DNA of 64,000 nucleotides from an uncultured Pseudomonadales bacterium (GCA_964348455.1 CAYGCQ010000001.1:58450-122449), one strand, 5' to 3'; shown: positions 1,313-63,817, numbered from the stretch's first letter. A program made the numbers and translations. Notes: generated by a model from the letters alone, not told the origin.

Positions 1313-1386
1313 GTCATTGCGAGGAGTGAAGCGACGCGGCAATCTATAATATCAATTGTCATTCCCGACCTGATCGGGAATCTATA
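1313..1386 (+). repeat. two adjacent hairpin repeats (type C 1313-1348; canonical 29-mer 1358-1386) between rfbC and the rmlD-like gene
   Basis: gtcattgcgaggagtgaagcgacgcggcaatctata, then gtcattcccgacctgatcgggaatctata, 15 nt before ATG 1401. Confidence 0.9.
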
Positions 1387-1400
1387 AAAATAAATTCAAT

Positions 1401-2321
1401 ATGTCCAAAGAAAAAATACTCATCACCGGTGCCAGTGGTTTAGTTGGCTCTCGTTTTGTGGAAAAGTACGTCGACAATTTTCAATTAATAACTCCTGAAT
1501 ACCCAGACTTCGACTTAACAAGGTTGGAGGATGTTCGAAAAATAATTGAAAAAGAAAATCCCGACTGGATCATAAACTTCGCAGCTTTTACAGACGTAAA
1601 TTCTGCTGAGGCACAGTTTGGTGATGAGTCAGGTTCGGCATGGAAAATAAATGTTGAAGGTACAGAAAATTTACAAAAAACATTTTTATCCAAGAATTTT
1701 ATTCAAATTTCTACCGATATGGTTTTCCCTGGTGACCTTAGTCAGCCAGGTCCATATTCCGAGACCGATATTCCTCCAGATTCAAGCGACAAACTCACTT
1801 GGTATGGCTGGACAAAAAACCGGGCAGAAAAACTAGTTCTTTCTCAGGGTGGCACAGTGCTTAGAATTATTTATCCGGTTAGAGAAAAATTTAATTTAAA
1901 GCTAGATTACATCAGAGGTGCTCTAAAAAAATTCGCGGAAGGAAAGATGTATCCTCTCTTTGATGATCAACAGATTTGTATTTCATACATCGATGAAGTC
2001 GCCGACACTTTATCCAAAATTATCGAGACTGATTCTCATGGTGTTTTTCATTGTTCTTCCGACACTACTACTCCCTACGAATTAATTTCCTATGTCGTTG
2101 ATCAGCTGGGCGAAGACGCCTCTCTTGTTAAGTCAGCTTCTATTAACGAATTTCTAAAGTCACAAGCAAACCCAAATCGTTACCCGGTTTGGGGAGGGTT
2201 AAGAACCGTCATCACCGAAGAGGCTTTGGAAATGCATTTCTCAACCTGGCAAACAGTAGTTGAGTATCTCATCGGTCAAGGTCTAAGTTTGCCGAAAGTT
2301 GAGAGTAGTGGTCAAAATTAA
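1401..2321 (+). CDS. rfbD: NAD(P)-dependent sugar reductase/epimerase, dTDP-4-dehydrorhamnose reductase-like (RmlD family)
   Basis: N-terminal Rossmann motif ILITGASGLVGS, ~300 aa, third gene of an rml-like cluster. The start codon lies 15 nt downstream of a hairpin repeat. Confidence 0.6.
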   Translation: MSKEKILITGASGLVGSRFVEKYVDNFQLITPEYPDFDLTRLEDVRKIIEKENPDWIINFAAFTDVNSAEAQFGDESGSAWKINVEGTENLQKTFLSKNFIQISTDMVFPGDLSQPGPYSETDIPPDSSDKLTWYGWTKNRAEKLVLSQGGTVLRIIYPVREKFNLKLDYIRGALKKFAEGKMYPLFDDQQICISYIDEVADTLSKIIETDSHGVFHCSSDTTTPYELISYVVDQLGEDASLVKSASINEFLKSQANPNRYPVWGGLRTVITEEALEMHFSTWQTVVEYLIGQGLSLPKVESSGQN

Positions 2322-2340
2322 TCGTATATACTATTTACAG

Positions 2341-3222: not shown

Positions 3223-3568
3223 AATAACTAATCCTGAGGCTATCAAACTTATTGATAATATTAAGAGTGGAGTTTTTTTCACTCCTGTTAAAGTTTGGGC
3301 TATCAAATACAAATGGTTCCTGGTAACCGGAGCTGTTATTATCGTACTTTTGATTGCTCTTGCTATTGGTAAAGCAATCTCTGCTAGCCGCCAGGCACCG
3401 GTGTTTCTTCCTCCCGATATCGGTACCCCTGTTCCTACCACCACTACGACAGTTAAGTCTGACTATCAATGGATACGACAAAATATTCTGAATTACAGTA
3501 CAGACCTTCCGGACCCTGTTCTTCCAGTTTTGGATAATACAATAAATCTCGAAAGTGCTAATATATAA
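3203..3568 (+). CDS. hypothetical single-pass membrane protein with Pro/Thr-rich linker
   Basis: 121-aa ORF with one TM helix (WFLVTGAVIIVLLIALAIG) and a PVPTTTTT linker. Confidence 0.45.
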   Translation: MSNPKFEITNPEAIKLIDNIKSGVFFTPVKVWAIKYKWFLVTGAVIIVLLIALAIGKAISASRQAPVFLPPDIGTPVPTTTTTVKSDYQWIRQNILNYSTDLPDPVLPVLDNTINLESANI

Positions 3569-3571
3569 CTT

Positions 3572-4306: not shown

Positions 4307-4312
4307 AGAACT

Positions 4313-5596: not shown

Positions 5597-5649
5597 CTAT
5601 TTTATCTTTCCCTACTATCTTTTCTTCCCCACACCACCACCACCACATT

Positions 5650-5944
5650 GTCATTCCGGGTCGTAGAGTCGCCTTGGGAGACCTTGACCCGGAATCCAGC
5701 CCCACACCACCCACTCATTAATTTGTCATCCCCGCGAAGATGGACCACTGGCACCCGAGGGGATAGATCCACAATCACTCACCACCTCACCAGTCATTGC
5801 GAGTTTCGGTACCCGATCCCAGAGTCGCCTCAGGAGACACCGAAGCAACCTCACACCACCTCACCACACCGTCTCACCACCCACTCATTAATTTGTCATC
5901 CTCTTCGCACTCCTTGTCATTCCCGACCTGATCGGGAATCTATA
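5650..5944 (+). repeat. intergenic array of 5 heterogeneous hairpin-repeat units separated by CA-rich (caccac) spacers
   Basis: Units: GTCATTCCGGGtcgtagagtcgccttgggagaccttgACCCGGAATCC (5650-5697); GTCATCCCCGCGAAGatggaccactggcacccgaggggatagatcca (5725-5771); GTCATTGCGAGTTTCGGT...ACCGAAGCAACCTCAC (5793-5854); a degenerate unit; then the canonical 29-mer (5916-5944). Confidence 0.9.
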
Positions 5945-6345
5945 TAGATAAAGTACAATTTAATTGTGAAGAGATATTATGTGTATATTCTCGCAAGTTA
6001 TAAAAATGGTACGCTGTATATAGGTGTAACAGGAAATTTAGAAAATAGAATATCTATCCATAAAAACGATATTGTGAAGGGGTTTACAAAGAAATTTGCA
6101 GTACACAGTCTGGTTCATCTGGAGGAATTCGAGAATTCATTACAAGCTATAGCAAGAGAAAAACAACTAAAGCATTGGAAGAGAGATTGGAAAATTGAAC
6201 TCATTGAAAAATCAAATCCAGATTGGAATGATATATCTGATGAATTTCTCTAAAAAAAGTTGAACCCGTTTTTATAGATTCCCGATCAGGTCGGGAATGA
6301 CGATTGAAATATTCCACATATTTTTACTCCGTGATTCGCAATGAC
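5916..6345 (+). mobile_element. ~430 bp micro-element: GIY-YIG nuclease gene flanked by perfect 29-bp terminal inverted repeats (copy 1)
   Basis: Left end gtcattcccgacctgatcgggaatctata (5916-5944) is the exact reverse complement of tatagattcccgatcaggtcgggaatgac (6273-6301). A second partial inverted unit gtgattcgcaatgac lies at 6331-6345. The whole unit is duplicated identically at 9253-9682. Confidence 0.7.
5966..6253 (+). CDS. GIY-YIG nuclease superfamily protein (UPF0213/YhbQ-like), 95 aa
   Basis: YVYILASYKNGTLYIGVTGNLENRISIHKND matches the GIY-(x10)-YIG core with the conserved R and H/N that follow. Identical to the ORF at 9303-9590. Confidence 0.8.
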   Translation: MKRYYVYILASYKNGTLYIGVTGNLENRISIHKNDIVKGFTKKFAVHSLVHLEEFENSLQAIAREKQLKHWKRDWKIELIEKSNPDWNDISDEFL

Positions 6346-9016: not shown

Positions 9017-9281
9017 GTCATTGCGAGTTTCGGTACCCGATCCCAGAGTCGCCTCTGGAGAGACCGTAGCAACCTCACACCTTTCACCACACCACCCACC
9101 ACACCACCCGTCATTGCGAGTTTCGGTACTACGAACCGAAGCAATCTCCGCTATTACACCACTCCACGAATGTCATCCTCGCGAAAGCGGGCCGATAGTA
9201 CCCGAATGGGTAGATCCACAAACACCACACAACACATCCTCAAAACACCCCAGTCATTCCCGACCTGATCGGGAATCTATA
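9017..9281 (+). repeat. intergenic array of 4 hairpin-repeat units with CA-rich spacers, ending in the left TIR of GIY-YIG element copy 2
   Basis: Units at 9017-9078 (GTCATTGCGAGTTTCGGT...long loop...AACCTCAC), 9110-9149 (GTCATTGCGAGTTTCGGTactacgaACCGAAGCAATCTCC), 9172-9219 (GTCATCCTCGCGAAAGCGGGccgatagtacccgaatgggtagatcca) and 9253-9281 (canonical 29-mer). Confidence 0.9.
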
Positions 9282-9682
9282 TAGATAAAGTACAATTTAA
9301 TTGTGAAGAGATATTATGTGTATATTCTCGCAAGTTATAAAAATGGTACGCTGTATATAGGTGTAACAGGAAATTTAGAAAATAGAATATCTATCCATAA
9401 AAACGATATTGTGAAGGGGTTTACAAAGAAATTTGCAGTACACAGTCTGGTTCATCTGGAGGAATTCGAGAATTCATTACAAGCTATAGCAAGAGAAAAA
9501 CAACTAAAGCATTGGAAGAGAGATTGGAAAATTGAACTCATTGAAAAATCAAATCCAGATTGGAATGATATATCTGATGAATTTCTCTAAAAAAAGTTGA
9601 ACCCGTTTTTATAGATTCCCGATCAGGTCGGGAATGACGATTGAAATATTCCACATATTTTTACTCCGTGATTCGCAATGAC
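9253..9682 (+). mobile_element. GIY-YIG micro-element copy 2, identical to 5916-6345
   Basis: Same 29-bp TIRs (9253-9281 and 9610-9638), same internal sequence and ORF, same gtgattcgcaatgac end (9668-9682). Flanking sequence diverges immediately outside. Confidence 0.7.
9303..9590 (+). CDS. GIY-YIG nuclease superfamily protein, identical second copy
   Basis: 95-aa translation identical to 5966-6253. Confidence 0.8.
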   Translation: MKRYYVYILASYKNGTLYIGVTGNLENRISIHKNDIVKGFTKKFAVHSLVHLEEFENSLQAIAREKQLKHWKRDWKIELIEKSNPDWNDISDEFL

Positions 9683-9691
9683 GCAAATTTT

Positions 9692-9723
9692 GAGTTTTAG
9701 AGTTTTTGAGTTTTAGAGTTTTT
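9692..9723. repeat. direct tandem repeat (gagttttagagttttt) x2 at the 3' end of the minus-strand gene
   Basis: Two adjacent 16-nt units. A related motif ttttagagttttagattttttgagttttt occurs at 61747-61779. Confidence 0.8.
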
Positions 9724-11576: not shown

Positions 11577-11826
11577 GTCATCCCCGATCCAGGAGTCGCT
11601 TGGGAGACCCTGATCGGGGATCAATATAATTAAAATACTCTGTCATCCTCGCGAACGCGGGGATTCACAGAAACAAAAAAACAACACCATGTCATTCCAG
11701 CGAAGGCGGGCCGCTGGTCCCCGGAGGGGGAAATCCATCAAATAAAACAAATGATAAAAAACCCAAAAATCTTTATTAAAAAATAATAAATAACATTGTC
11801 ATTCCCGACCTGATCGGGAATCTATA
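11577..11826 (+). repeat. intergenic array of 4 hairpin-repeat variants ending in the canonical 29-mer directly upstream of the next start codon
   Basis: Units at 11577-11632 (GTCATCCCCGATCcaggagtcgcttgggagaccctGATCGGGGATC), 11642-11670 (GTCATCCTCGCGAACGCGGGGATTC), 11691-11740 (long GTCATTCCAGCGAAGGCGGGccgctggtccccggagggggaaatcca) and 11798-11826 (canonical). The ATG follows at 11830. Confidence 0.9.
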
Positions 11827-11829
11827 CAA

Positions 11830-13326
11830 ATGAACTCAATAATAAATTTTATAAAAAAGAACAAATCCGAGTCTATATTGCTTGGAGCAGTCCTCCTTCT
11901 TGCACTTGTACTTCGCGTCTATCGTATCGAAGATTTTATGACCTTTCTTGGTGACGAGGGTCGTGATGTCCGCATTGTTCGCGATTTAATTACTCAAGGC
12001 AACTTAGTCTTTATCGGTCCGCAAACCAGTATTGGAAACATGTATCTAGGACCTCTTTATTACTACATGATGGCCCCTGCACTTCTCCTTTCCGGTCTCA
12101 ACCCCGTTGGACCAGCCATTATGGTTGCTCTACTGGGAACACTGACAATCTGGCTGACTTGGTTCGTCGGTAGAAACTGGTTTGGCAAACAGGCTGCATT
12201 TATCGCTGCGCTGCTTTTTGCAGTCTCTCCGGTCGCCATTATTTACTCCCGCTCTTCATGGAATCCTAACCCGATGCCTTTTTTCGCTCTTCTGTGTATC
12301 TGGGGAATCTATGAAGTCTGGCAGAATAAAAAATATATTTGGCTTCCCTATACCAGCATCTCTTTTGCCTTTGCTCTTCAGATGCACTATCTGGGGTTAC
12401 TTTTGATTCCTACCCTAGGCCTGTTCTGGCTTTTTACTCTCATATCCATTAATAAAGCCAAAGACATAAGGTCTAGAAGGATTTTTCTACGATATTCTCT
12501 TTTTGGGTTTTTGATTTTTTTATTACTGATGTCTCCACTTTTGCTGTTCGACACAAAACACAACTGGATGAACTTTAATGCTTTCAAGTCATTTTTCTCA
12601 GATCGTCAGACAACTGTAAATCTAAACCCCGCCAGGTCAGATAGATTTCTTCCTGTCATGCTTATGACCATTTCAGACATGGTTTTAGCTCGCCAAGAGT
12701 ACTTTGCTCCCATAACCTTAGCACTCACTCTTCTGCTGTCAGGCTGGGTTTATTTTAAGTCCAAGTGGCAGACTCCTCTAAAGGTATTATTTGTTTGGCT
12801 CGGTCTAGCTATCCTTGGTCTTAGTGTCTATAAGCAACATGTCTACATTCACTATCTCGGATTTATCTACCCAGCCATCTACCTTCTCATTGGGGCGATT
12901 TTAGGATTCATGTTACAACGGAAAGTAGTCTTAAAAATTATTTCAGCTTCTCTGGTACTCTTTCTCTTTTTCTACAGTCTGGTTTACAGTCCGGTAAGAG
13001 AAACTCCAAATCGTCAACTTTGGCGCACAGAAGCGGCCGTAGATCTCATTATTAAGGAGTCGGGTGGCCAGCCGTTCAACTTTGGCTTACTTGCAAAACA
13101 AAACTATGATGAGTCCTATCGTTATTTTTTGGAGAACAAAAAAGCCAATTCTTTTAGAGCTGAAGATAAGGTAACGAATCAGATGTTTGTCATCTGTGAA
13201 GACGGTGATGCTTGTAGCCCGGAAGGAAGTCCTGCGTATCAAATAGCCAAGTTTGGACAAGCTCATGTAGTGGGCACATGGAATGTTGACTATCTGAAAA
13301 TTTATCGTTTAGCACATTTCAAATGA
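11830..13326 (+). CDS. GT-C fold membrane glycosyltransferase, ArnT/PMT-like (subfamily with GDEGRD loop motif)
   Basis: More than 10 TM helices. The first periplasmic loop RIEDFMTFLGDEGRDVRIVRD carries the DE motif. Paralogous to 27145-28878 and the N-terminal half of 37686-38273. Confidence 0.65.
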   Translation: MNSIINFIKKNKSESILLGAVLLLALVLRVYRIEDFMTFLGDEGRDVRIVRDLITQGNLVFIGPQTSIGNMYLGPLYYYMMAPALLLSGLNPVGPAIMVALLGTLTIWLTWFVGRNWFGKQAAFIAALLFAVSPVAIIYSRSSWNPNPMPFFALLCIWGIYEVWQNKKYIWLPYTSISFAFALQMHYLGLLLIPTLGLFWLFTLISINKAKDIRSRRIFLRYSLFGFLIFLLLMSPLLLFDTKHNWMNFNAFKSFFSDRQTTVNLNPARSDRFLPVMLMTISDMVLARQEYFAPITLALTLLLSGWVYFKSKWQTPLKVLFVWLGLAILGLSVYKQHVYIHYLGFIYPAIYLLIGAILGFMLQRKVVLKIISASLVLFLFFYSLVYSPVRETPNRQLWRTEAAVDLIIKESGGQPFNFGLLAKQNYDESYRYFLENKKANSFRAEDKVTNQMFVICEDGDACSPEGSPAYQIAKFGQAHVVGTWNVDYLKIYRLAHFK

Positions 13327-13875: not shown

Positions 13876-13901
13876 GTCATTCCGGGCTTGACCCGGAATC
13901 C
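13876..13901 (+). repeat. hairpin repeat, type B (GTCATTCCGGGCTTGACCCGGAATCC), 10 nt upstream of ATG 13912
   Basis: Stem CCGGG/CCCGG, loop cttga. Intergenic between orn and a GT2 gene. Confidence 0.9.
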
Positions 13902-13911
13902 AGAAACTCAA

Positions 13912-16190: not shown

Positions 16191-18008
16191 ATGCGTTACT
16201 TCTCTCAGATTATTCCCTCAATAGCCAAATTTATTTCACGATTTAGAGTAGAGATTATTTTGTTGCTTTTAATTGTTCCTGCAATCAGCGACATATTTAA
16301 GCCTGGTTTTATGCCTATGCACGATGATCTTCAAGTTCTTCGCTTGGTAGAAGTTCATAAATGTGTATTGGACGGCCAGATTCCTTGCCGTTGGGTGCCG
16401 GATGCTGGTTATGGTTATGGCTACCCTCTTATGGAGTTCTATCCACCTATGCCTTACTACCCGATGGAGCTCATGGTACTACTCGGTTCCGACTTCTTCT
16501 TACCGGTCAAGGTCATGTTTGCCTTAGCCTTCTTACTTAGTGGTCTGGGTATGTATCTATTAGCCAAGGAGTTCTTTGGTAAATGGGGAGGTGTTATAGC
16601 CGCCGTTCTGTATGTCTATTCTCCGTATCACTCTGTAGATGTATATGTTCGAGGCGCCATGAACGAAGCCTGGGGGATGGTCTGGTTCCCCTTTGTCCTT
16701 CTCTACATTTATAGATTAATACATAGTCATTCCCGACCTGATCGGGAATCTATAAAAATAAAATCCCAAAATACAATTTCTCGCGACTTTATCTACTTAA
16801 GCATCGCCCTCGCTCTCCAGCTAACCTCACACAACGTTATGACTTTAGTTTTTGCCCCCACGGCTATTATCTGGGCATTTTTCTGGATGTGGAAAGCAGA
16901 CAAATTTGAAAGGTTCAAAGAGCTCTTTTTTGCCGGGTTACTTGCCTTAGGACTTTCAGCTTTCTTCTTTATTCCCGTAGTCTTGGAGCAGAAATTTGTT
17001 CACGTAGACACCATGACCATCGGTTATTTCAATTACTTAGCTCACTTTGCTGATTTAAATCAACTATTCTGGACCCGTTTCTGGGGTTATGGCGGCTCTA
17101 CTTGGGGTCCGGAAGATGGGATGTCTTTCTCGATTGGTCACATTCAGTGGATCGGTGCCATACTCGCTAGCACAGTAGCTATTATGAGACTTTATCGACT
17201 CAAGTTTTACAAAAATGTATCTGTCATTGCGAGTCTCGTAGCCGAGCCGAAGCAATCTAAAAGTACAAAATCATCGGAAATAAATATGATGATTCTTCTG
17301 ATGATTTCTTTCGGCTTATTTTACGCTTTTCTCACTCATAGTCGATCAAACTTTATCTGGGAAAGGCTGTCAGTTCTTCAGTTTGCTCAGTTTCCTTGGC
17401 GACTCGTGGCATTGATTGTCTTTTACTTCTCTTTTGCTGCCGGATATGTGGGTACTATTACTATTCCTAAGTTTTTTAAGGCTATTATTTTTCCCATATT
17501 AATCATTGGCATTATTTTATTTAACATTCCCTTCTTCCGGTTTGAGCGTCATGTAAGGGTAACGATTCAAGAAAAAATGTCTGGACTTCAATGGGAGAAT
17601 CAGGTTACGGGTGGTATCTTCGACTATCTTCCTAGGACGGCTACCAGACCACCCGGCGCCCCTGCCTTCACTATTCCTCAATACATCGAAGGCAATGGTG
17701 GAATCTTGAACTATCGATCAGGGTCAAACTGGATTGCCTTTGATGCTTTCGTTTCTACTTCCTCAGCCAAAGTCATGCTTCCCATGTTTACATTCCAAGG
17801 TTTAAAAACAAAAGTCGATTCCCAGAGAGTGCTAACTGAAATGGATCCGGATCTAGGAAGAATAATCGTCAACCTGGATCAAGGACTTCATCATGTAGAA
17901 GCCAAAATTGGCTACACGAAAGTAAGGCTCTTGTCAGACTTTTTAACTTTTATTTCTCTTGCCATATTAATAAAGCTAATCTACCGTGATCGAAAACACA
18001 CCACCTGA
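16191..18008 (+). CDS. large polytopic membrane protein (possible GT-C glycosyltransferase) carrying two in-frame hairpin repeats
   Basis: 605 aa with at least 12 TM helices. Repeats at 16726-16754 (read as HSRPDRESI) and 17223-17259 (SVIASLVAEPKQS) keep the frame open. Confidence 0.5.
   Translation: MRYFSQIIPSIAKFISRFRVEIILLLLIVPAISDIFKPGFMPMHDDLQVLRLVEVHKCVLDGQIPCRWVPDAGYGYGYPLMEFYPPMPYYPMELMVLLGSDFFLPVKVMFALAFLLSGLGMYLLAKEFFGKWGGVIAAVLYVYSPYHSVDVYVRGAMNEAWGMVWFPFVLLYIYRLIHSHSRPDRESIKIKSQNTISRDFIYLSIALALQLTSHNVMTLVFAPTAIIWAFFWMWKADKFERFKELFFAGLLALGLSAFFFIPVVLEQKFVHVDTMTIGYFNYLAHFADLNQLFWTRFWGYGGSTWGPEDGMSFSIGHIQWIGAILASTVAIMRLYRLKFYKNVSVIASLVAEPKQSKSTKSSEINMMILLMISFGLFYAFLTHSRSNFIWERLSVLQFAQFPWRLVALIVFYFSFAAGYVGTITIPKFFKAIIFPILIIGIILFNIPFFRFERHVRVTIQEKMSGLQWENQVTGGIFDYLPRTATRPPGAPAFTIPQYIEGNGGILNYRSGSNWIAFDAFVSTSSAKVMLPMFTFQGLKTKVDSQRVLTEMDPDLGRIIVNLDQGLHHVEAKIGYTKVRLLSDFLTFISLAILIKLIYRDRKHTT
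16726..16754 (+). repeat. canonical 29-mer hairpin repeat inside CDS, frame b (HSRPDRESI)
   Basis: gtcattcccgacctgatcgggaatctata, exact. Confidence 0.9.
17223..17259 (+). repeat. hairpin repeat type D (GTCATTGCGAG...CCGAAGCAATCTA) inside CDS, in-frame
   Basis: gtcattgcgagtctcgtagccgagccgaagcaatcta. Confidence 0.85.
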
Positions 18009-26032: not shown

Positions 26033-26061
26033 GTCATTCCCGACCTGATCGGGAATCTATA
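26033..26061 (+). repeat. canonical 29-mer hairpin repeat, 15 nt upstream of ATG 26076
   Basis: gtcattcccgacctgatcgggaatctata followed by aatataaaaacaatATG. Confidence 0.9.
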
Positions 26062-39580: not shown

Positions 39581-40332
39581 TCCCTCAACTTTTCCTGTCA
39601 TTTGTATTTTCTTTGATATTCTTTGCCAGAGAAAAATCAGGCTGGTTTGGTATTCTATATCTCGCATTTCTTCCATTTATTATTTTCTCCGGCTTAGAAC
39701 CACTCCTCTTATTTATCTCACTATTACTCGGGTATCTCCTCTTTTGTCTTTTCCGAAAACCAACCGCTTCTAACTTCGTAATCTTTATAATTGTTGTTAT
39801 TACTTCTCTTGCTATAGTCCAGCCAAGGAGTGGAATTGATCTGGGCATGCTCAATGCAATCAATTCTCAAAGAGGGGAGCACTCCGATTTTGAAAACTCA
39901 CTATTGCCAAAGCTACTTCACAACAAATCAGACCTTTTCCAATCTTTTATAAACAATTTTGACAAGCTTTTGTCTCCAGTTGCCATTTTTGCTTCCGGAT
40001 TTTGGCACAATATCAGTCCTTATTATCCTCTTGGATTCTTGTTTCCTTGGGATCTATTTTTTATCTATTACTTCTTCAAGAATCAATCGACTTCTTGGAC
40101 TCGAAAATCTTACTGGTTTTTTGCAGTAGCCTTGATTCTACTTATCCTGCTTACGGGATTTGTCTACCTTGACCAGGCAGAGGTTTACTGTTTCGCTGTC
40201 GTTTATTTCTTGGCTATTTTGGCTTTCCTTGGATATTCGCAGTCATCCATAAAGACCAGATATATTTTCCTACTCATCAACTCAATTTACTTGGTCTACC
40301 ATCTGGTCGTCACTAGTTACTTTCCCATATGA
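39577..40332 (+). CDS. hypothetical polytopic membrane protein
   Basis: 251 aa with about 7 TM helices. Overlapping start and stop with its neighbours. Confidence 0.45.
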   Translation: MIPQLFLSFVFSLIFFAREKSGWFGILYLAFLPFIIFSGLEPLLLFISLLLGYLLFCLFRKPTASNFVIFIIVVITSLAIVQPRSGIDLGMLNAINSQRGEHSDFENSLLPKLLHNKSDLFQSFINNFDKLLSPVAIFASGFWHNISPYYPLGFLFPWDLFFIYYFFKNQSTSWTRKSYWFFAVALILLILLTGFVYLDQAEVYCFAVVYFLAILAFLGYSQSSIKTRYIFLLINSIYLVYHLVVTSYFPI

Positions 40333-48245: not shown

Positions 48246-49966
48246 AGAAATACACCATACTGATTGTTGCTCTGGTTCTAGGTACATTCCTTCGGCTGTG
48301 GCAGTTGTCTGCAGTTCCAAATGGATTGACCTGGGACGAAGCAGCTATTGGCTACAATGCTTTTTCGATTCTAAAGACCGGTCGAGATGAGCATGGCGCA
48401 TTCTTACCACTTATCTTCAAAAGTTTTGGGGATTACAAGCCAGGCGCATATATTTACCTCACTGTTCCCTCAGTCGCTATATTTGGCTTGAATGAATTCG
48501 CTGTGCGCTTTCCATCTGCTCTTGCCGGCATTCTGGGCATATTGGGCATTTACCTTCTCACCAATGAAATATTCTCAAATAAGTCTAAATCAAAATCAAA
48601 ATCAAAAAACAATGTCATTCCCGACCTGATCGGGAATCTATATAAATCAAATTCAACTTTTAATTTAGGGTCTTTCGCCGCTCTTGCCTTCGCCATTTCT
48701 CCCTGGTCTGTTCACTTTAGCCATGGATCTTGGGAGGTGAATGTTTTCTCCACTTTGACAATTTTTGCACTCTACTACTTCTTGAGATTTATAAAAAATA
48801 AATCATCTCTATACCCATCACTTCTTTTGGCTTGTTTGTCACTGGCCATGTATCAAGCTGCCAAGCTTCTTACACCTCTAGTATTCCTTCTATTTGTCAT
48901 AATTTACTGGAAAGAATTTTGGTTGGAATTTAAGAAATATCTCAATCCAAGAAAACTGTTATTAGTATTACCCTTTGTACTATTTGGCTTATTTATCTTT
49001 TTTGGATCTATCTTTGGTAGTGCTGGTAATAGACTTAGTACTCTTAGTATCTTTAACTACAAGCCAAATCTCGCAGAAAAAGCACTGCCAATAGACGGGC
49101 CAAATTCATTTGCTACTCCCATATTTCATAATCAGACCCAGTTGTCCACCTCACTAGTGATCTCCCGCTACATCTATCATTTTTCTCCGGAAGTCCTACT
49201 TTATGAGGGTCCGATAATCTCTGAAAGGGGACACATCCCTGGCCTTGGAGTTTTGAACCCTCTCGAATTTATTTGGCTTGTGTTTGGATTCATCTGGCTC
49301 GCTCGTCAAATTTTTCCAGGCAGTCATGACTCACCAAGTAAGCCCACTCTTTTAATCCTTGGACTATTGTTTATCGCCCCGATACCCGCTTCGCTGACTT
49401 TGGCCGAATTTTCAACCGTTCGCGCGCTATTTATGTTAGTTCCACTTGCCATAATTTCCGGTATTGGTATGGCCTATTCGATTCAGCAATTAAAATACTT
49501 TGCAGTTCCCATAGTTATCTTGTATGGTTTGGTCACCGTTTACACTTTTGATGTCTACTTTTTTCACAGCCAAACAGCTTTTGCAAAAGAATTTAATTAT
49601 GGATACAAACAAGTAGTTGGATTAATCAAAGAAAATCCAACCAAAAGAGTTGTGTTTACTGATGTCTTCGGTCAGCCATATATTTATTATCTCTTTTATA
49701 CCGCTTACGATCCCGATACATATCAAAAAAACAATGGCTTTATAGACGGAGGACTTGATGTGGGAAAAGTTGATAAAGTCGCCAACGTAGAGTTCCATCA
49801 ATTTAATTCCGATGACATGAATACTGGTAAGGACACTCTCTTTATCGGGAGTGAGGGTAATATCAATAACCAGTTCGACATAGCCGGGTCAAACGTGTCT
49901 CTTTTTCGCCAATTTGAAACTCCTGATCTAAAAATCTTATTTAGAGTCATTAAAACTAAACAATGA
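48242..49966 (+). CDS. ArnT/PMT-family membrane glycosyltransferase (tandem paralog 5)
   Basis: TWDEAAIGYNAFSILKTGRDEHGAFLPLIFKSFGDYKPG...AVRFPSALAGIL. The start MKKYTILIVAL overlaps the upstream stop. Carries a KSKSKSKSK low-complexity run and a repeat at 48614. Confidence 0.7.
   Translation: MKKYTILIVALVLGTFLRLWQLSAVPNGLTWDEAAIGYNAFSILKTGRDEHGAFLPLIFKSFGDYKPGAYIYLTVPSVAIFGLNEFAVRFPSALAGILGILGIYLLTNEIFSNKSKSKSKSKNNVIPDLIGNLYKSNSTFNLGSFAALAFAISPWSVHFSHGSWEVNVFSTLTIFALYYFLRFIKNKSSLYPSLLLACLSLAMYQAAKLLTPLVFLLFVIIYWKEFWLEFKKYLNPRKLLLVLPFVLFGLFIFFGSIFGSAGNRLSTLSIFNYKPNLAEKALPIDGPNSFATPIFHNQTQLSTSLVISRYIYHFSPEVLLYEGPIISERGHIPGLGVLNPLEFIWLVFGFIWLARQIFPGSHDSPSKPTLLILGLLFIAPIPASLTLAEFSTVRALFMLVPLAIISGIGMAYSIQQLKYFAVPIVILYGLVTVYTFDVYFFHSQTAFAKEFNYGYKQVVGLIKENPTKRVVFTDVFGQPYIYYLFYTAYDPDTYQKNNGFIDGGLDVGKVDKVANVEFHQFNSDDMNTGKDTLFIGSEGNINNQFDIAGSNVSLFRQFETPDLKILFRVIKTKQ
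48614..48645 (+). repeat. canonical repeat, in-frame (VIPDLIGNLYKS)
   Basis: gtcattcccgacctgatcgggaatctatataaa. Confidence 0.9.
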
Positions 49967-51813
49967 AATCAACTGTCATTCCGGGCTTGACCCGGAATCT
50001 ATACAAATTTATTCCTATTATTCTTGTCTTGCTATTAGCTGCCTTTCTAAGATTAATCTCTCTGGACAAATTTCCGGCTGGTTTAAACGCAGATGAAGCC
50101 GCGATTGGGTACAACGCTTGGTCTTTGATCCAGACAGGTAAAGATGAACATTCTATGTCTTGGCCATTAGTATTTAGATCTTTCGATGACTACAAGCCTC
50201 CAGTTTATTTTTATCTTGTCCTCCCATTCGTAAAATTTTTAGGACTGAATGTCTGGTCTGTCCGTCTTCCCTCAGCACTAGACGGTATTGCCTCTGTCTA
50301 CCTCCTTTACTTAGTTGTCATTCTTTTATTCAAAAAAACAAATTCCACTAACAATCATGTCATCCTCGCGAAGGCGGGGATCCATCCGGATCACAATTCT
50401 TCTGATTTAGAATGTGACACAAAGACATATCGATTTGCCCTCCTCTCCGCCCTCCTTCTCGCTATTTCTCCTTGGCATCTTCAGTTCTCTCGGGGAGGAT
50501 GGGAGGTAAACGCAGCACTCTTTTTTATCCTTTTGGGGATTTGGTCTTTCTTCAAGGGCTTGGAAAAGCCAAAATATTTTTATCTCTTTGTCATTTCTAT
50601 GGCCGTCAGCCTCTACACATATCACTCCGCCCGCATCATCTCTCCCTTACTTGCCCTCACTCTCGTCATCCTCTTCTGGAAACAACTCTTCCCAATATCA
50701 TTACCCAAAGTCCATCGTGTCATTCCCGACCTGATCGGGAATCTATATAAATCTACCGCTTCAAAAACCTGTCTCATCGCCTGTCTTCTCGGCCTCCTCC
50801 TCTCCCTCCCTCTCGCCGGCCAGCTTCTATCCAAAGAAGGTCAATCGCGTTTTTCAGGAGTTTCTGTTTTTTCAGATACCGGTCCACTCTGGCAAGCACT
50901 GGAACAGCGTAGAGCTCACACCCCTGAAACTATTTTTATCAAATCTATTCACAACCAATATCTTTCCTACGGACTAAGATTTGTCAAAAATTATTTATCT
51001 CACTTTTCACCACGCTTTCTATTTGTTACCGGAGACGAGATTGCTCGTAGTAAAGTGCCTGGTATGGGGCAGACTTATTTGTTCTTGATACCATTTTATT
51101 TTCTAGGACTTTACTCCTTACTGAAACTAGATTCGAAGGGTAAAAAACTTATTTTTATTTGGTTCTTGATAGCGCCATTGGCTGCTGCTCTAACTTTTCA
51201 GTCACCTCATGCCCTACGCTCTCAGAACATGGTAGTGCCTCTATCGGTAATCTCTGCGCTTGGACTTTCAGTATTTATAAACCTGCTTCTAAGAGTAAAT
51301 AAGAAATGGCTCACTATTACGATTTCAACTTTACTATTTCTTTCTGGCACCTACTCCGTCGCTCGGTATCTACATCTATACTATGTTCATTACCCCAAAG
51401 AGCTCCCCTTTGCTTGGCAATTCGGTTTTGATCAAGTCGCTGCTTATACCAACGACAACTATGATAATTATGACCGTATCTTAATTTCCGATCGTTATGA
51501 TCAGCCCTACATACTTATGGCCTTTTTCCTAAAATATCCACCTGAAGTGCTCCAAAAAGAACTTGTCATGACCCCTCGCGATAAGTTTGGTTTCTCCACG
51601 GTCAGAAAGTTCGGAAAGTTTGAATTCCGATCAATTGACTATGGTCAAGATAAGTTGCTTCCAAATACCCTTATAATGGCCGCAGACGAGGCCGTCGATG
51701 ATGAAGCCGTAATCCATATTATCAACGACCCCGCCGGAATCCCAATGTACAAATTCATCTCGACAGAACCTGTTTTAAAAATTGATCTACCTATCACTGC
51801 CAAAGAAAAATAA
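49963..51813 (+). CDS. ArnT/PMT-family membrane glycosyltransferase (tandem paralog 6) carrying three in-frame repeats
   Basis: NADEAAIGYNAWSLIQTGKDEHSMSWPLVFRSFDDYKPP...SVRLPSALDGIA. Repeats at 49975 (N-terminus, MKSTVIPGLTRNLYKF), 50359 (VILAKAGIHP) and 50719 (VIPDLIGNLYKS). Confidence 0.7.
   Translation: MKSTVIPGLTRNLYKFIPIILVLLLAAFLRLISLDKFPAGLNADEAAIGYNAWSLIQTGKDEHSMSWPLVFRSFDDYKPPVYFYLVLPFVKFLGLNVWSVRLPSALDGIASVYLLYLVVILLFKKTNSTNNHVILAKAGIHPDHNSSDLECDTKTYRFALLSALLLAISPWHLQFSRGGWEVNAALFFILLGIWSFFKGLEKPKYFYLFVISMAVSLYTYHSARIISPLLALTLVILFWKQLFPISLPKVHRVIPDLIGNLYKSTASKTCLIACLLGLLLSLPLAGQLLSKEGQSRFSGVSVFSDTGPLWQALEQRRAHTPETIFIKSIHNQYLSYGLRFVKNYLSHFSPRFLFVTGDEIARSKVPGMGQTYLFLIPFYFLGLYSLLKLDSKGKKLIFIWFLIAPLAAALTFQSPHALRSQNMVVPLSVISALGLSVFINLLLRVNKKWLTITISTLLFLSGTYSVARYLHLYYVHYPKELPFAWQFGFDQVAAYTNDNYDNYDRILISDRYDQPYILMAFFLKYPPEVLQKELVMTPRDKFGFSTVRKFGKFEFRSIDYGQDKLLPNTLIMAADEAVDDEAVIHIINDPAGIPMYKFISTEPVLKIDLPITAKEK
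49975..50006 (+). repeat. type B repeat 12 nt after the annotated ATG, in-frame
   Basis: gtcattccgggcttgacccggaatctatacaaa. Confidence 0.9.
50359..50389 (+). repeat. type E repeat GTCATCCTCGCGAAGGCGGGGATCCATCCGG, in-frame
   Basis: T-G wobble position conserved. Confidence 0.9.
50719..50750 (+). repeat. canonical repeat, in-frame (VIPDLIGNLYKS)
   Basis: Exact 29-mer plus TATAAA. Confidence 0.9.
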
Positions 51814-51815: not shown

Positions 51816-52088
51816 GTCATTCCTGCGCAGGAATGACGCTGGTACCCGAAGGGGGAAATCCATCAAATCAATTTCATCCCCTTTCGTCATTGCGAGTTTC
51901 GTAACCGATCCCAGAGTCGCCTCAGGAGACACCGAAGCAATCTCACTCCACCCTTGTCATTCTGAACTTGATTCAGAATCCATCCCCTCATCTCACACAA
52001 ACAATCTCACTCCACACACCACACCACACGTCATGGGGTTAATCCGCCGTGGCGGAAGTTTTGGTATTCCGAACCGAAGCAATCTATA
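51816..52088 (+). repeat. intergenic array of 4 hairpin-repeat variants with CA-rich spacers
   Basis: Starts with the perfect 22-nt palindrome GTCATTCCTGCGCAGGAATGAC (51816-51837), extended by gctggtacccgaagggggaaatcca. Type D long unit at 51886-51946. GTCATTCTGAACTTGATTCAGAATCCATCCC at 51956-51986. A GTCATGGGGTTAATCCGCCGTGGCGGAAG... unit ending AAGCAATCTATAAT at about 52029-52088. Confidence 0.9.
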
Positions 52089-52101
52089 ATATAAATATTC
52101 A

Positions 52102-60927: not shown

Positions 60928-60997
60928 CTTCCTTGACAAAGACCCATAATAGTAGTATATTCAAGACAATCGCATCTTAAAAAAGAAGGAGGCCATC

Positions 60998-61240
60998 GTG
61001 CCCATAAACAAGTACAAACCTGCTATCAGGAGAGCTATTCAGCCTGATAACAACAAAAAGATATTTGTGACATTCGTAAGAATATTTTTCGGGAGTCTGG
61101 CATTGCTCTTTTTTTCACTTGCCATATATTGCTTTAGCCTTGGCGCTGCGCTAGGGGGAACAGTCTACGCAATATGTGGTTGCTTAGCAATAATTGTTGG
61201 TGCAGTTGGTGAAGCGACTTATCCCGGGACTCCTAAATAG
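60998..61240 (+). CDS. hypothetical small two-TM membrane protein (GTG start)
   Basis: An AAGGAGG Shine-Dalgarno at 60982-60988 sits 9 nt before GTG. 80-aa ORF. Confidence 0.4.
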   Translation: MPINKYKPAIRRAIQPDNNKKIFVTFVRIFFGSLALLFFSLAIYCFSLGAALGGTVYAICGCLAIIVGAVGEATYPGTPK

Positions 61241-61320
61241 GAGTCCTTTTTTTTGTCAATAAAGTTATTAGCTAACAATCTCGCACCCATAAACAACAGC
61301 TATTCACTCCACCCGATACT

Positions 61321-61736
61321 GTCATCCCGACCGTAGGGGCCGATGGTACCCGAAGGGGTAGATCTCACCCCACTGTCATTCTGAACTTGATTCAGAATCC
61401 ATCCACCATCTTTCATCATTGCGAGGTACCACACCCTAGTCATTCCCGACCTGAGTGGGCCGCTGGTACCCGAAGGGGTGAATCTATATAAATTATTCCA
61501 CCCTCTCGTGATCCCTACCAAATGAAATGAGTGGAGGAATCTCTCTCCACTGTCATTCTGAACTTGATTCAGAATCCATCCCCACACCACCACTCACAAC
61601 TCAACCCGTCATGGAGTTTATCCGCCGTGGCGGAAGTTTCGGCAACCGATCCCAGAGTCGCCTCAGGAGACACCGAAGCAATCTCACACCCTCTACCAAA
61701 CCATTCGTCATTCCCGCGAAGGCGGGAATCCATCCC
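61321..61736 (+). repeat. largest intergenic array: 7 heterogeneous hairpin-repeat units
   Basis: Units at 61321-61371, 61375-61405 (GTCATTCTGAACTTGATTCAGAATCC), 61414-61437 (degenerate GCGAGG type), 61439-61496, 61552-61583 (second TGAA/TTCA unit), 61608-61687 (GTCATGGAGTTTATCCGCCGTGGCGGAAG...ACCGAAGCAATCTCAC) and 61707-61736 (GTCATTCCCGCGAAGGCGGGAATCCATCCC). Confidence 0.9.
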
Positions 61737-61783
61737 ATTTATTCCAATTTTAGAGTTTTAGATTTTTTGAGTTTTTCAGCTAG

Positions 61784-62629
61784 TTGTTAATATATAATCT
61801 CCTCATGCCCACAAAGGCAAAGAAAAAAACATTCAAAGTCGGCAAAGTTGACACCAGTCTACTTTCTGTTATTGTTCCGACTTACAACTGTAAAACCATT
61901 TTCAAAGACCTATCTTTCATCAAACTCCATTTAGATATCCTAAATCGTCCCTACGAAATCATCTGCGTTGTCGACGGTCTAGTCTCTCCCAGAGATAAAA
62001 CTTATAAGCATGCAAAAAAATTCAGAGCAGACAAAACCAAAATATATTTTTACAAAAACAATAAAGGCAAGGGCTACGCCATCCGCTACGGCATGGCCAG
62101 GGCCAAAGGTGGGCTGATCGCCTTTATAGATGCAGGGGGTGATCTCCATGCAAAAGGTATTTCTCTAGCGCTTGAGCATATGAAGTGGTATGACGCGGAC
62201 ATTATAATAGGCAGCAAGCGTCACAAGGCTAGTAAAGTCGAGTATCCATTACAGAGAAAAATTCTTTCTTTCATTGTGCAGAAGGCTACCAAATTCATGT
62301 TCGGATTAAACGTTTCGGATACTCAAACAGGACTTAAACTTTTCAAAAGAAATGTGTTGGTAAAGGTTTTGCCTCGTTTGATCGTGAAGCGCTGGGCTTT
62401 CGACCTCGAAGTCCTTACAGTTGCTAACCATCTTGGGTTTAAAAGAATATTTGAGTCACCTGTCGAAATTAGTCACAATTTTATGAGCAATATCGGACTC
62501 TCCTCTGTCCAGAACTTTGCGATGGATTATCTTGCCATTCTTTACCGTACTTACATTCTTCGTTACTATGATGATGGAGGATCAGACCACTGGGAGGGAG
62601 ACCCAAATCTCACCCTCCGCTACAAATAA
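61784..62629 (+). CDS. GT2 glycosyltransferase
   Basis: LSVIVPTYNCKTIF, ICVVDGLVSP, AFIDAGGDL and QTGLKLFKR motifs. Alternative start MPTKAKKK at 61805. Confidence 0.65.
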   Translation: MLIYNLLMPTKAKKKTFKVGKVDTSLLSVIVPTYNCKTIFKDLSFIKLHLDILNRPYEIICVVDGLVSPRDKTYKHAKKFRADKTKIYFYKNNKGKGYAIRYGMARAKGGLIAFIDAGGDLHAKGISLALEHMKWYDADIIIGSKRHKASKVEYPLQRKILSFIVQKATKFMFGLNVSDTQTGLKLFKRNVLVKVLPRLIVKRWAFDLEVLTVANHLGFKRIFESPVEISHNFMSNIGLSSVQNFAMDYLAILYRTYILRYYDDGGSDHWEGDPNLTLRYK

Positions 62630-62644
62630 ATATTCTAAAATCTT

Positions 62645-62677
62645 GTCATTCCTGCGAAGGCAGGAATCCATCAAATG
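62645..62677 (+). repeat. type F repeat GTCATTCCTGCGAAGGCAGGAATCCATCAAATG running into the start codon of the next gene
   Basis: ATG 62675 lies 3 nt after the repeat body. Confidence 0.9.
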
Positions 62678-63817
62678 AATTCCACAAAAAAAACACAAGC
62701 CACTCTGCACCAAAAACTTCCCAAAGTCTCCATCATCATTGTCGACTACAAAAAGAAAAATCCATATTTAGTCGAGTGTTTGGACGCCATCCAAAATCAA
62801 ACCTACAAAAATTTCGAAATCATTCTCGTCTGTGACTATCCAGTTACATTGTCATCCTCGCGAAGGCGTGGATCCATCCCCTCACTCCGCCAAAAATCCT
62901 ACGGTCACTACGTCGGTCCGGCCGAAAAGCGAGATGTTGGTGCCAAGATGGCAAAGGGGGAAATTCTGGCCTTTATCGATGACGATGCTTTTCCATCACC
63001 TGACTGGTTAGCTAAAATAGTTCCTCATTTAAAAAACAAAGATATCGCAGGTGTGGGCGGTCCAGGAATCACCCCGACCAATGTATCCTGGCAGGAGCAG
63101 TCTTCCGGGTGGGCATCTGCCTCACCTGCTGGAGCTGGGAACTACACCTATCGATTTCTTCCCGGAAAAATGCAGTTTGTCGACGACTACCCCTCTATGA
63201 ATCTTGCAGTTCGCAAAACAGACTTCGATAGAGTCGGTGGTTTTGACTCGAATTTCTGGCCAGGCGAGGACACTAAGCTTTGCTTGGATCTTACACACAA
63301 GTTGGGCAAGAAAATAATTTATGAGCCAAAAGCTATTGTTTATCATCATAGACGCCCCATCTGGAAAGGTCACTTAATGCAAAACGGTAACTTCGGTCTT
63401 CATCGAGGATTTTTTGCTCGTATTCTTCCGGAAACATCCCTTAAGCTCATTTATTTCGCGCCATCATTTTTACTTCTCGGTCTTATTTATCTTTTATTTT
63501 TATCAAAATTAAATCAACCACCTTTTAACTATCTGCACTCATATGGCTGGTTGGCACTCAAACTATATTTCCTCCTCCTCACCCTCAACTCTCTCTGGAT
63601 TTTCTCCATCATTGCGAGGAGTGAAACGACGTGGCAATCCAGCACATCAACTTCCTTACACTCTGTCATTCCTGGCTTGACCAGGAATCCATCAAATAAA
63701 GTTCAATCAGCTATCCTCCAATCCCTCATTTCCATCCCCGTCATCTTTGTCACCCATCTTTGGTACGGCACCCGTTTCCTTCAAGGCTTCCTCTTTACCG
63801 AAAAATTATCCCGATAG
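62675..63817 (+). CDS. GT2 glycosyltransferase carrying three in-frame hairpin repeats
   Basis: VSIIIVDYKKKN, FIDDDAFPSPDW and GGPGITP GT2 motifs. Repeats at 62851-62881 (VTLSSSRRRGSIP), 63607-63640 and 63665-63694 (VIPGLTRNPSNK). Confidence 0.7.
   Translation: MNSTKKTQATLHQKLPKVSIIIVDYKKKNPYLVECLDAIQNQTYKNFEIILVCDYPVTLSSSRRRGSIPSLRQKSYGHYVGPAEKRDVGAKMAKGEILAFIDDDAFPSPDWLAKIVPHLKNKDIAGVGGPGITPTNVSWQEQSSGWASASPAGAGNYTYRFLPGKMQFVDDYPSMNLAVRKTDFDRVGGFDSNFWPGEDTKLCLDLTHKLGKKIIYEPKAIVYHHRRPIWKGHLMQNGNFGLHRGFFARILPETSLKLIYFAPSFLLLGLIYLLFLSKLNQPPFNYLHSYGWLALKLYFLLLTLNSLWIFSIIARSETTWQSSTSTSLHSVIPGLTRNPSNKVQSAILQSLISIPVIFVTHLWYGTRFLQGFLFTEKLSR
62851..62881 (+). repeat. type E repeat GTCATCCTCGCGAAGGCGTGGATCCATCCCC, in-frame, splitting the GT2 catalytic domain
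   Basis: Inserted between the conserved CDYP and the DxD region. Confidence 0.9.
63607..63640 (+). repeat. type C repeat (CATCATTGCGAGGAGTGAAACGACGTGGCAATCC), in-frame
   Basis: Same variant as 1313-1348. Confidence 0.85.
63665..63694 (+). repeat. type B-like repeat GTCATTCCTGGCTTGACCAGGAATCCATCA, in-frame
   Basis: Compensatory change: stem CCTGG/CCAGG instead of CCGGG/CCCGG with an identical loop. Confidence 0.9.

Follow-up and report, generated by a model that had tools for sequence, protein, structure and literature searches.

The closest described relatives of the repeats considered here are NTS, a 28-nt repeat of Neisseria (CGTCATTCCCGCGMAVGCGGGAATCYRG), and its SRM relatives, which associate across phyla with ssnA, a gene encoding a 94-residue GIY-YIG protein (Chenal et al. 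2025, PMC11893778). The hairpins often flank ssnA on both sides, and 71% of the homologs have a flanking SRM (PMC11893778). SsnA binds the hairpin as single-stranded DNA (ssDNA) only, on one strand only and not as RNA, and cuts a few nucleotides upstream. Cleavage is governed by the three nucleotides that precede the palindrome, binding by the C that follows it (PMC11893778). Loop identity is irrelevant to the enzyme, and loop extensions are tolerated (PMC11893778). We have analyzed a 64-kb stretch of DNA (CAYGCQ010000001.1:58450-122449, here called the window; GC ~40%) that holds a dense family of hairpin repeats and two copies of a gene, ssn, for an SsnA homolog. By its named best matches, the host belongs to Candidatus Collierbacteria (Microgenomates), within the candidate phyla radiation (CPR). 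On sequence criteria the repeats are CPR representatives of the CGTC-tagged REP/NTS/SRM family with its Ssn nuclease and not a new kind of element; the interpretation given in an earlier note on this DNA is borne out in part, but the repeats are no unknown structured element. We consider it probable that the repeats are ssDNA hairpins of this family that are recognized strand-specifically by Ssn.

The CGTC-REPs of Di Nocera, De Gregorio and Rocco (2013) have a CGTC or TGTC tag, an 8-9 bp stem starting with AT, a 4-5 nt loop and a tail near CCA; a genome may hold several sub-families, many copies are intragenic, Neisseria dRS3 belongs to the group, as do RPE-4 and RPE-6 of Rickettsia, and no dedicated transposase was known (PMC3733652). 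The repeats of the window have this tag, stem, loop and tail, and several stem sub-families coexist among them. Intragenic copies that are translated in frame are likewise common to the window and to the CGTC-REPs of R. conorii (PMC3733652). CGTC-REPs are, however, found mainly in Alphaproteobacteria and mostly as head-to-head dimers, whereas the copies in the window are nearly all single or in direct arrays: 56 of the 61 share one orientation, and inverted copies are confined to the ssn units and a convergent pair (47050/47143). The preference for dimers is a tendency in organization and does not define the family by sequence. The two systems differ also in their enzyme, none being dedicated to the repeats in the CGTC-REP survey, whereas a GIY-YIG gene accompanies them here and in PMC11893778.

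With NTS and SRM the window shares the CGTC/TGTC tag, the ATTCC...GGAAT stem, the 4-5 nt loop and the C after the stem, together with the NTS-ssn-NTS layout, a single-domain GIY-YIG protein of ~95 residues and the placement of repeats near envelope-protein genes. It differs in its CPR host, a group absent from the main text of PMC11893778; in the intragenic share of its copies (~46%, against 2% in N. meningitidis); in arrays of a single orientation, where orientations around Neisseria ssnA are mixed; and in composite units that bear extra modules. What is new here is the CPR host, the density of the repeats, their one-strand direct arrays and their in-frame spread in envelope glycosyltransferase genes, together with a stem variant that is widespread but falls outside the published search pattern.

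Anatomy of the repeats and of the ssn unit

Positions are given throughout as coordinates within the window. The motif GTCATYC occurs 61 times where 14.8 occurrences are expected, a count reached in none of 100 shuffles, and GGAATCYAT 25 times where 1.6 are expected. A covariance model (R1) trained on 25 distinct short copies recovers 32 full-length canonical 28-nt hairpins in the window, 30 on the + strand and two on the - strand, with nothing further above noise, and hand curation added the composite, degenerate and truncated copies. The curated total is 61 copies, 56 on the + strand and five on the - strand, which occupy 3.3% of the window at about one per kb, upholding the dense family of more than 55 copies that had first been noticed. 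The strong orientation bias reported with it also stands, except that five copies rather than three are reversed: the right-hand hairpins of the two ssn units (6274-6301 and 9611-9638), two 15-nt fragments (6331-6345 and 9668-9682) and an intragenic composite (47098-47143).

When all GTCAT contexts on both strands are listed they form one family with several classes: short hairpins of 27-28 nt, such as GTCATTCCCGACCTGATCGGGAATCTAT; short hairpins with a ~20-nt AGAGTCGCC module within the loop; long variants bearing a GGTMCCCGAAGGGG module; class B (GTCATTGCGAG...GAAGCAATC); and fragments. A scan of the window found the AGAGTCGCC and GGTMCCCGAAGGGG modules confined to the repeats. The commonest stem is CCCGA, present in 14 of the 32 short copies, and this is also the variant that flanks ssn. 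The repeats are not an assembly artifact, because independent ENA and Logan contigs are 100% identical to the window over the regions that they cover.

Each unit consists of an unpaired (C/T)GTC tag, an 8-bp stem starting with AT and a loop of 4-5 nt (GAAG/GAAA or YYTGA), followed directly by a C and then by a CAT or TAT tail, the tails reading CCAT or CTAT. Positions G2, T3 and C4 of the tag are invariant in the 32 short copies, position 1 being T, C or A, and column 26, directly after the stem, is C in at least 90% of them. The columns that vary little or not at all (the GTC tag, the AT with which the stem opens and the C that follows the stem) are the positions on which cleavage and binding depend in Neisseria NTS. 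The shared ends and 5-8 bp stem of the earlier description require correction accordingly: the stem is 8 bp, including the AT of GTCAT, and the conserved 5' tag is (C/T/A)GTC.

Pairing in the 8-bp stem amounts to 97.5% across the 25 distinct sequences, and both sides change at five of the eight pairs. The covariation score of 0.455 compares with 0.158 in shuffles, none of 500 of which reached it, and pairing is lost when the register is slid. The variation therefore preserves base pairs, as had been claimed, and all the stem variants listed at that time are present: CCCGA/TCGGG, CCGGG/CCCGG, CCTGG/CCAGG, CCTGC/GCAGG, TCTGAA/TTCAGA and, for the last, CCTCGC/GCGGGG. Pair-preserving variation does not by itself prove selection on structure, since the variants are discrete palindromic sub-families whose members pair by construction.

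Folded as ssDNA, the short copies reach -6.4 to -7.7 kcal/mol (z -2.9 to -4.0) and the loop-insert hairpin at 11577 reaches z -4.0. We do not claim for the long composites a defined nested structure such as was first proposed, since three of the four that were folded score like shuffles as whole molecules. The CCTCGC/GCGGGG variant, which has a conserved T.G pair, folds at -6.4 kcal/mol on the GTCAT strand, whereas its complement, with a C.A mismatch, folds at -4.5. This strand asymmetry agrees with a hairpin that forms on the GTCAT strand. The DNA mini-hairpins d(GCGAAGC) and d(GCGAAAGC) are unusually stable, and the cores GCGAAGGC and GCGAAAGC of several variants resemble them.

The ssn gene lies in a 430-bp unit that is present twice on the + strand (5916-6345 and 9253-9682). 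Each unit comprises a left-hand CCCGA hairpin (5916-5943 and 9253-9280), the gene itself (5966-6253 and 9303-9590, both +), an inverted CCCGA hairpin (6274-6301 and 9611-9638, both -), a 29-nt spacer and, as the right terminus, an inverted 15-nt GTCATTGCGA-class fragment (6331-6345, GTCATTGCGAATCAC, and 9668-9682, both -). The identity between the units starts exactly at GTCAT and stops exactly at ATGAC, and no target-site duplication was seen at the ends of either. That the two copies are 100% identical over 430 bp indicates a recent duplication or movement of the unit. Short-read contigs of the same population break in the duplicated unit, L126 ending at 6024 and L124 and L001 starting at ~6220 and 6309.

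The Ssn protein is 95 residues long and consists of a single domain, with the Pfam GIY-YIG family matching residues 4-77 (E 4.2e-15) and the related T5orf172, the sole other Pfam match, covering the same residues (E 1e-3). As the Neisseria reference we used a 94-residue open reading frame (ORF) of a gonococcal chromosome filed among plasmids, which lies inside a dense NTS array; the window protein is 51% identical to this N. gonorrhoeae SsnA ortholog (pairwise E 4e-29), and the catalytic Y6, Y17 and E64 of N. meningitidis SsnA have their aligned counterparts in its Y7, Y18 and E65. By tblastn the window protein gives E 3e-19 against a 7.3-Gb database, the homology criterion of Chenal et al. 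for ssn being E < 1e-10 (PMC11893778). NCBIfam has no specific model for the protein, and the PDB yields only weak UPF0213 relatives (1zg2, E 3e-4). Homologs at 60-69% identity are found in many phyla; the gene of a Planctomycetota homolog is flanked by inverted hairpins like the ssn gene of the window, and that of a Collierbacteria homolog lies within a hairpin cluster with a same-orientation copy on either side.

An enzyme gene between inverted hairpins, hundreds of solo hairpins, mosaic arrays and strand-specific ssDNA recognition also characterize the REP/BIME-RAYT systems. The shared layout would suit REPs or MITEs moved by a transposase encoded elsewhere (RAYT/IS200-IS605-type Y1 or DDE), with the GIY-YIG gene as a passenger, and our analysis covers only ~76 kb of the genome. 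The tag, however, is (C/T)GTC, reading GTC(A) where RAYT-associated REPs have GTAG, and the enzyme is a GIY-YIG nuclease rather than an HUH tyrosine (Y1, IS200/IS605-like) transposase. Among the window ORFs that were scanned none showed a transposase domain, nor did any of the gene calls in the 12-kb flanks; the ends of the ssn units lack target-site duplications, and the gene that recurs beside the hairpins across phyla is the GIY-YIG gene (an SRM flanks 71% of its homologs, PMC11893778). We regard movement by a separate transposase as highly improbable.

Probable strand-specific recognition and the orientation of the hairpins

By homology with the Neisseria system, the GTCAT strand, when single-stranded, would fold into the hairpin, and Ssn would bind this hairpin and nick the single strand a few nucleotides 5' of the tag. 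On this view the solo copies are non-autonomous relatives of the hairpins that bound the ssn units. We favor the ssDNA level over the RNA level because the repeats match NTS and SRM, on which SsnA acts as ssDNA only and on one strand, and because a homolog of that enzyme is encoded twice. The earlier note had argued for selection on structure in RNA or ssDNA and against neutral decay. Its case against decay is upheld and its ssDNA alternative favored, although covariation alone is insufficient to carry the argument and the sequence of the stem matters besides its shape, since Neisseria SsnA is inactive on a stem that has been changed with its pairing preserved (PMC11893778).

Were the hairpins instead to act in RNA, through mRNA stability, attenuation or termination, or the tuning of translation, selection on transcripts could have set their orientation, and nearly all copies are indeed co-oriented with genes. 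Of the intergenic copies, many stop 3-45 nt short of a start codon and have the 3' extension CTATAYAAAT in common; the T.G pair would become G.U in RNA, and transcription of many REPs was argued for by Di Nocera et al. (PMC3733652). Yet 28 of the 61 copies lie in coding sequence, no obvious place for a regulatory hairpin, and no copy has a T-tract. In scans for promoters and terminators, sites resembling either were not enriched, and the copies were rejected as candidates for classical terminators or sigma-70 promoters. The Rfam search suggested in the earlier note, made at the gathering threshold, returned no match across the 64 kb, and no tRNA or tmRNA genes were found in the window. A perfect palindrome in RNA can fold as well one way round as the other, so that RNA structure alone leaves the bias of most variants unexplained; in other genomes the units occur as convergent pairs and in both orientations, and SsnA does not bind the RNA form (PMC11893778). 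A function at the RNA level is in our view unlikely.

The + strand holds 83% of the coding bases of the window, and ~10 kb of - strand genes contain no copy at all. Cumulative GC skew falls monotonically along the whole window. The GC3 skew, read on the + strand, is -0.21 for + genes and -0.07 for - genes, and since it is negative for both there is a strand-wide component. Monotonic GC skew over the whole chromosome, with one C-rich strand, was described by Kadnikov et al. (2020) for Collierbacteria and relatives (order UBA1400; PMC7143001), and the skew of the window fits this strand disparity. A strand-specific ssDNA process would be consistent with hairpins oriented to one strand over the whole genome. 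The bias in the window cannot be put down to transcription, because gene direction, strand-wide GC skew and a reading-frame filter coincide. The near-uniform orientation probably results from a process specific to one strand, acting on a chromosome that is asymmetric between its strands, with an additional reading-frame filter that favors the forward orientation of intragenic copies.

Several points weigh against the recognition and spread of these repeats by Ssn. GIY-YIG nucleases cut, and none is known to join ends. The whole-molecule folds of three of the four composites are no better than those of shuffles (z -0.1 to -1.2). Altering the sequence of the stem while preserving its pairing abolished the activity of Neisseria SsnA (PMC11893778), and because that enzyme did not cut the changed stem, one Ssn, the single type that the window encodes, can probably not serve all seven stem variants. 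The role of Neisseria SsnA lies in limiting transformation, which presupposes natural competence (PMC11893778). The published SRM pattern, HGTCWYN(0-2)YYVSBRHN(0-5)WNVSBRGN(0-2)RNCYNB, was hand-built from 29 genomes (PMC11893778); 29 of the 32 short copies fail it, at inner-stem positions only, the dominant stems of the window (CCCGA, CCGGG and TCTGAA) lying outside the pattern. Three copies do match it (20968, 50358 and 61706), against 0.12 in shuffles, which speaks for the family assignment, as does the copy at 61706-61733 with its single mismatch to the NTS consensus itself, CGTCATTCCCGCGMAVGCGGGAATCYRG, where no such match is expected by chance; no other copy comes within three. Lastly, an ssn homolog lies within the ~8-kb stretch in just four of 118 cases among the listed matches to the commonest hairpin, which are described below.

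Copies within the envelope glycosylation locus

The window as a whole forms one very large locus for envelope glycosylation, with at least 13 GT39/PMT_2-like paralogs and many GT2 and GT4 genes, as well as two YfhO-like genes, a GT87-like gene, a Polysacc_synt flippase and rfb (dTDP-sugar) genes. The hairpins are concentrated in and around a subset of the glycosylation genes, a clustering that recalls the occurrence of NTS near membrane-protein genes in Neisseria.

The earlier note overlooked the most unusual point about the repeats, which is that nearly half of them lie in frame within genes. On the gene map, 27 of 60 scored copies are intragenic and 33 intergenic; with the degenerate copy at 63608-63642 added, 28 of 61 (~46%) are intragenic, in eight genes, in frame and without stop codons. 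The 26 scored forward intragenic copies are distributed as 17 in frame 0, seven in frame 1 and two in frame 2, encoding VIPDLIGNLYK, VIPGLTRNLYK and VIPAKAGIH in frame 0, SHSRPDRESI in frame 1 and LSSSRRRGSIP in frame 2. Frame 2 is rare because it holds a TGA stop in every variant with a YYTGA loop. Two or three frames are open in the forward orientation and one of three in the reverse.

The genes that hold inserts are genuine and intact: the GT39/PMT_2-like paralogs can be aligned to either side of the inserts, with gaps where the repeats encode peptides. The 616-residue product of gene 49963-51813 has orthologs of ~545 residues without inserts, and others that bear different variants at the same two loops, while the collinear homologs of the 1171-residue protein, 1064-1068 residues long, are without its three repeat blocks (seven copies). 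We noted also that the repeats lead gene callers to varied start sites and to extended ORFs, and that a few intragenic copies supply an in-frame ATG (QMNS, QMKL).

Such inserts have a reported parallel in Rickettsia, where Ogata et al. (2000, cited in PMC3733652) are said to have described palindromic elements (RPE-1 and relatives) inserted in frame in protein-coding genes. Compared by description only, the window shares with these elements non-destructive in-frame insertion, permissive surface positions and presence or absence between related genomes. It differs in that RPE-1 is 100-150 bp long and unrelated in sequence, and in its host, a free-living or episymbiotic member of the CPR. In the literature we found nothing relevant that links GIY-YIG proteins with Rickettsia palindromic elements, or the CPR with intragenic palindromic repeats.

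The same loops are occupied in paralogs and orthologs, frame 0 is preferred (17 against seven and two of 26) and the hosts are envelope glycosylation enzymes, all of which could suggest that intragenic copies are kept as useful peptide loop modules, for example for surface variation, the DNA hairpin being incidental. The same DNA is, however, read in three frames, many orthologs have no insert at these sites, and 33 copies are intergenic; what is conserved across phyla, whatever the coding context, is the DNA palindrome with its GTC tag. We consider selection for the peptides the least credible of the explanations weighed here.

The individual intragenic copies, all on the + strand except where stated, are as follows. 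A CCCGA hairpin (2425-2452) lies in the N-terminal extension of ORF 2299/2341-3222, and another (40359-40386) in the first 20 codons of ORF 40329-42062, the true start of which may be 40407. The gene for a 605-residue PMT_2-like protein holds in frame a CCCGA hairpin (16726-16753, SHSRPDRESI) and a class B copy (17223-17260, VIASLVAEPKQS). All seven copies in the gene for the 1171-residue protein are in frame: a CCTCGC/GCGGGG hairpin that fits the published SRM pattern (20969-20995), a class B copy (21019-21058), long variants at 21116-21160, 21717-21764 and 22379-22426, a CCCTGC/GCAGGA hairpin (21791-21817, VIPAKAGIH) and a CCGGG hairpin (22442-22469, VIPGLTRNLYK). Four more in-frame copies occupy the gene for a 577-residue protein, namely CCTGC/GCAGG (27631-27657) and CCGGG (27679-27706) hairpins, a hairpin with loop module (27824-27872) and a degenerate short copy (28151-28178).

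Further along, the GT39-like gene 46302-48245 carries in frame a CCCGA hairpin at loop site 1 (46683-46710), a variant hairpin (46863-46891, GTCATCCCGACCGCAGTGGAGGGATC), a CCGGG hairpin (47050-47077) in convergent pairing with a hairpin bearing a loop module (47098-47143, -; the sole reverse-oriented intragenic copy), and a second CCCGA hairpin (47536-47563, SHSRPDRESIQMNS). Loop site 1 of gene 48242-49966 is likewise occupied in frame by a CCCGA hairpin (48614-48641). Gene 49963-51813 has an in-frame CCGGG hairpin after codon 4 (49975-50002), a CCTCGC/GCGGGG hairpin in frame at loop site 1 (50359-50385), which most orthologs lack, and a CCCGA hairpin in frame at loop site 2 (50719-50746), which is absent or different in orthologs. 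In the gene for a GT2 catalytic domain, finally, an in-frame CCTCGC/GCGTGG hairpin (62851-62877, LSSSRRRGSIP) is followed in frame by a degenerate class B copy (63608-63642, ATCATTGCGAGG...GGCAATCCAG) and a CCTGG/CCAGG hairpin (63665-63692).

The remaining copies are all on the + strand. The first part of the window has an intergenic class B copy (1313-1347, GTCATTGCGAG...GCAATC), a CCCGA/TCGGG hairpin 16 nt 5' of an rmlD-like start codon (1358-1385) and a 5'-truncated long variant with a GGTCCCCGAAGGGGGA module (2366-2406). The array at 5650-5943 comprises a CCGGGTC/GACCCGG hairpin with a 20-nt AGAGTCGCC loop module (5650-5699), a long composite variant (5725-5772), a class B copy with a AGAGTCGCC module (5793-5856) and a 5' fragment (GTCATCCTC..., 5895-5915), and ends with the left-hand hairpin of the first ssn unit; that at 9017-9280 comprises a class B copy with a module (9017-9080), a class B copy (9110-9149) and a long composite variant (9172-9220), and ends with the left-hand hairpin of the second. 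Three nucleotides past the stop codon of a GT2 gene begins the hairpin CCCCGATC with its loop module (11577-11625), followed by a CCTCGC/GCGGGG hairpin with the T.G pair and a degenerate tail (11642-11668), a long composite variant (11691-11738) and a CCCGA hairpin 4 nt 5' of the ATG of a PMT_2 gene (11798-11825). Isolated short hairpins lie at 13876-13903 (CCGGG/CCCGG, intergenic), 26033-26060 (CCCGA, intergenic, 5' of a GT1 gene) and 62645-62671 (CCTGC, 3 nt 5' of the ATG of a GT2 gene).

Two arrays remain. The intergenic array 51816-52091 consists of a long variant (51816-51863), a class B copy with a module (51886-51948), a TCTGAA/TTCAGA hairpin (51956-51983) and a GTCATGGGG...CCGCCGTGGCGG...GAAGCAATC variant (52030-52091). 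The array 61321-61733 is made up of long variants (61321-61368 and 61439-61486), TCTGAA hairpins (61375-61402 and 61552-61579), a class B fragment (61417-61432), a GTCATGGAG...CCGCCGTGGCGG... variant with a AGAGTCGCC module (61608-61690) and a CCCGC/GCGGG hairpin (61707-61733), the last being the copy that, with the preceding C (61706), is one mismatch from the Neisseria NTS consensus.

Array units are separated by C/A-rich spacers, CCACACCACC and CTCACTCCACCC (5630-5915, 9081-9252, 51984-52029 and 61580-61607), which recur between arrays in a BIME/NIME-like mosaic. A T-rich tandem motif, TTTTGAGTTTTAGAG, occurs five times at up to two mismatches, against 0.46 expected (9688-9718 and 61749-61779); each group lies a short way 3' of either an ssn unit or an array of repeats and may be another small repeat or an array boundary. 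The conservation of the unit runs beyond the 3' end of the hairpin, as ATC-TATAYAAAT or ATC-CATCAAAT and then roughly AATTCC, an extension of most short copies, seen for example at 11823-11840, 47561-47580 and 62669-62685. Before the 61321 array lies a small ORF that starts with GTG at 60998 (60998-61260), has an AAGGAGG ribosome-binding site upstream and encodes a short hydrophobic protein; it ends, just before the array, at a hairpin and T-run (AGGAGTCC-TAAATA-GGAGTCCTTTTTTTT) that, unlike the repeats, looks like a genuine intrinsic terminator.

Occurrence in other genomes and possible movement of the unit

The exact 25-mer GTCATTCCCGAYYTRATCGGGAATC, which contains the CCCGA stem, occurs in at least 118 genome stretches, the hosts among the matches listed being CPR groups, Campylobacterota, Chloroflexota, Bacteroidota, Planctomycetota and Verrucomicrobiota. 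Restriction to this island or an assembly artifact, either of which would have told against the first description of the repeats, is excluded by these stretches and by the identity of the independent contigs. Nor are the copies neutrally decaying junk, because the same 25-mer is found exactly in so many stretches from many phyla. Elsewhere (L005-L122) GTCATTCCCGAYYTRATCGGGAATC mostly stands alone or has an inverted GGATTCCCGC...GCGGGAATGAC copy 15-40 nt after it, an arrangement that resembles the ssn unit minus its gene. These stretches have ~1.6 model matches per 8 kb, in mixed orientation, despite each having been chosen for holding a copy, against ~4 short copies per 8 kb in the window, or ~8 with composites, nearly all on one strand.

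On the contig of the window itself, six more copies lie in the next 3 kb downstream, two of them inside a radical-SAM gene, and there are none in the following 7 kb or in the 2.2 kb upstream of the window. Just downstream (L125 11259-14150) is a HigB/HigA-like toxin-antitoxin pair (Gp49 and HTH_3) on the - strand, after which comes the radical-SAM gene, of the B12-binding type, with its two in-frame hairpins (L125 12968 and 13025). The contigs L124, L123, L001 and L002 belong to the same genome and are 100% identical, and so carry no strain-level information on presence or absence.

A syntenic 17-kb stretch of a related Collierbacteria genome (L128) has ~11 copies, of which a single one is off the gene strand and several are intragenic. 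It is without the arrays 51816-52091 and 61321-61733, and its genes abut at those places. At the orthologous site before the GT2 gene, the window has a CCTGC-GAAG hairpin (62645-62671) where L128 has CCCGA-CCTGA (L128 17012-17037), a difference that implies replacement or independent insertion rather than drift by point mutation. Insertion or replacement of copies is thus recurrent, since relatives lack copies or have a different stem variant at the same sites. The repeats may spread by an ssDNA or repair-coupled route, possibly with Ssn nicking the DNA and another unit then serving as the template for copying; such nick-stimulated copying is suggested because different variants occupy the same orthologous sites.

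Taken a step further, the Ssn-hairpin unit could be an active strand-specific ssDNA mobile element that writes itself into one strand of a chromosome whose strands are asymmetric throughout and overwrites resident copies with other variants by nick-and-copy repair, an idea that we put forward as speculative and rather doubtful. If it were true, in-frame insertion by such an element would extend to essential envelope genes, and the orientation of its copies would track replication and not transcription; the small genomes of these bacteria would then be a natural system in which to learn how CGTC-REPs move.

The findings extend the Ssn/hairpin-repeat system to the candidate phyla radiation, and they show that the commonest variant, spread though it is over many phyla, escapes the published search pattern. 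The two identical ssn units, the arrays found in one species but not in its relative and the different variants at one orthologous site provide comparative material. For those working with CPR genomes, the repeats fragment short-read assemblies and inflate or fuse gene calls. For the organism itself, they mean that a reduced genome tolerates dozens of hairpin inserts within the reading frames of its envelope glycosyltransferases.

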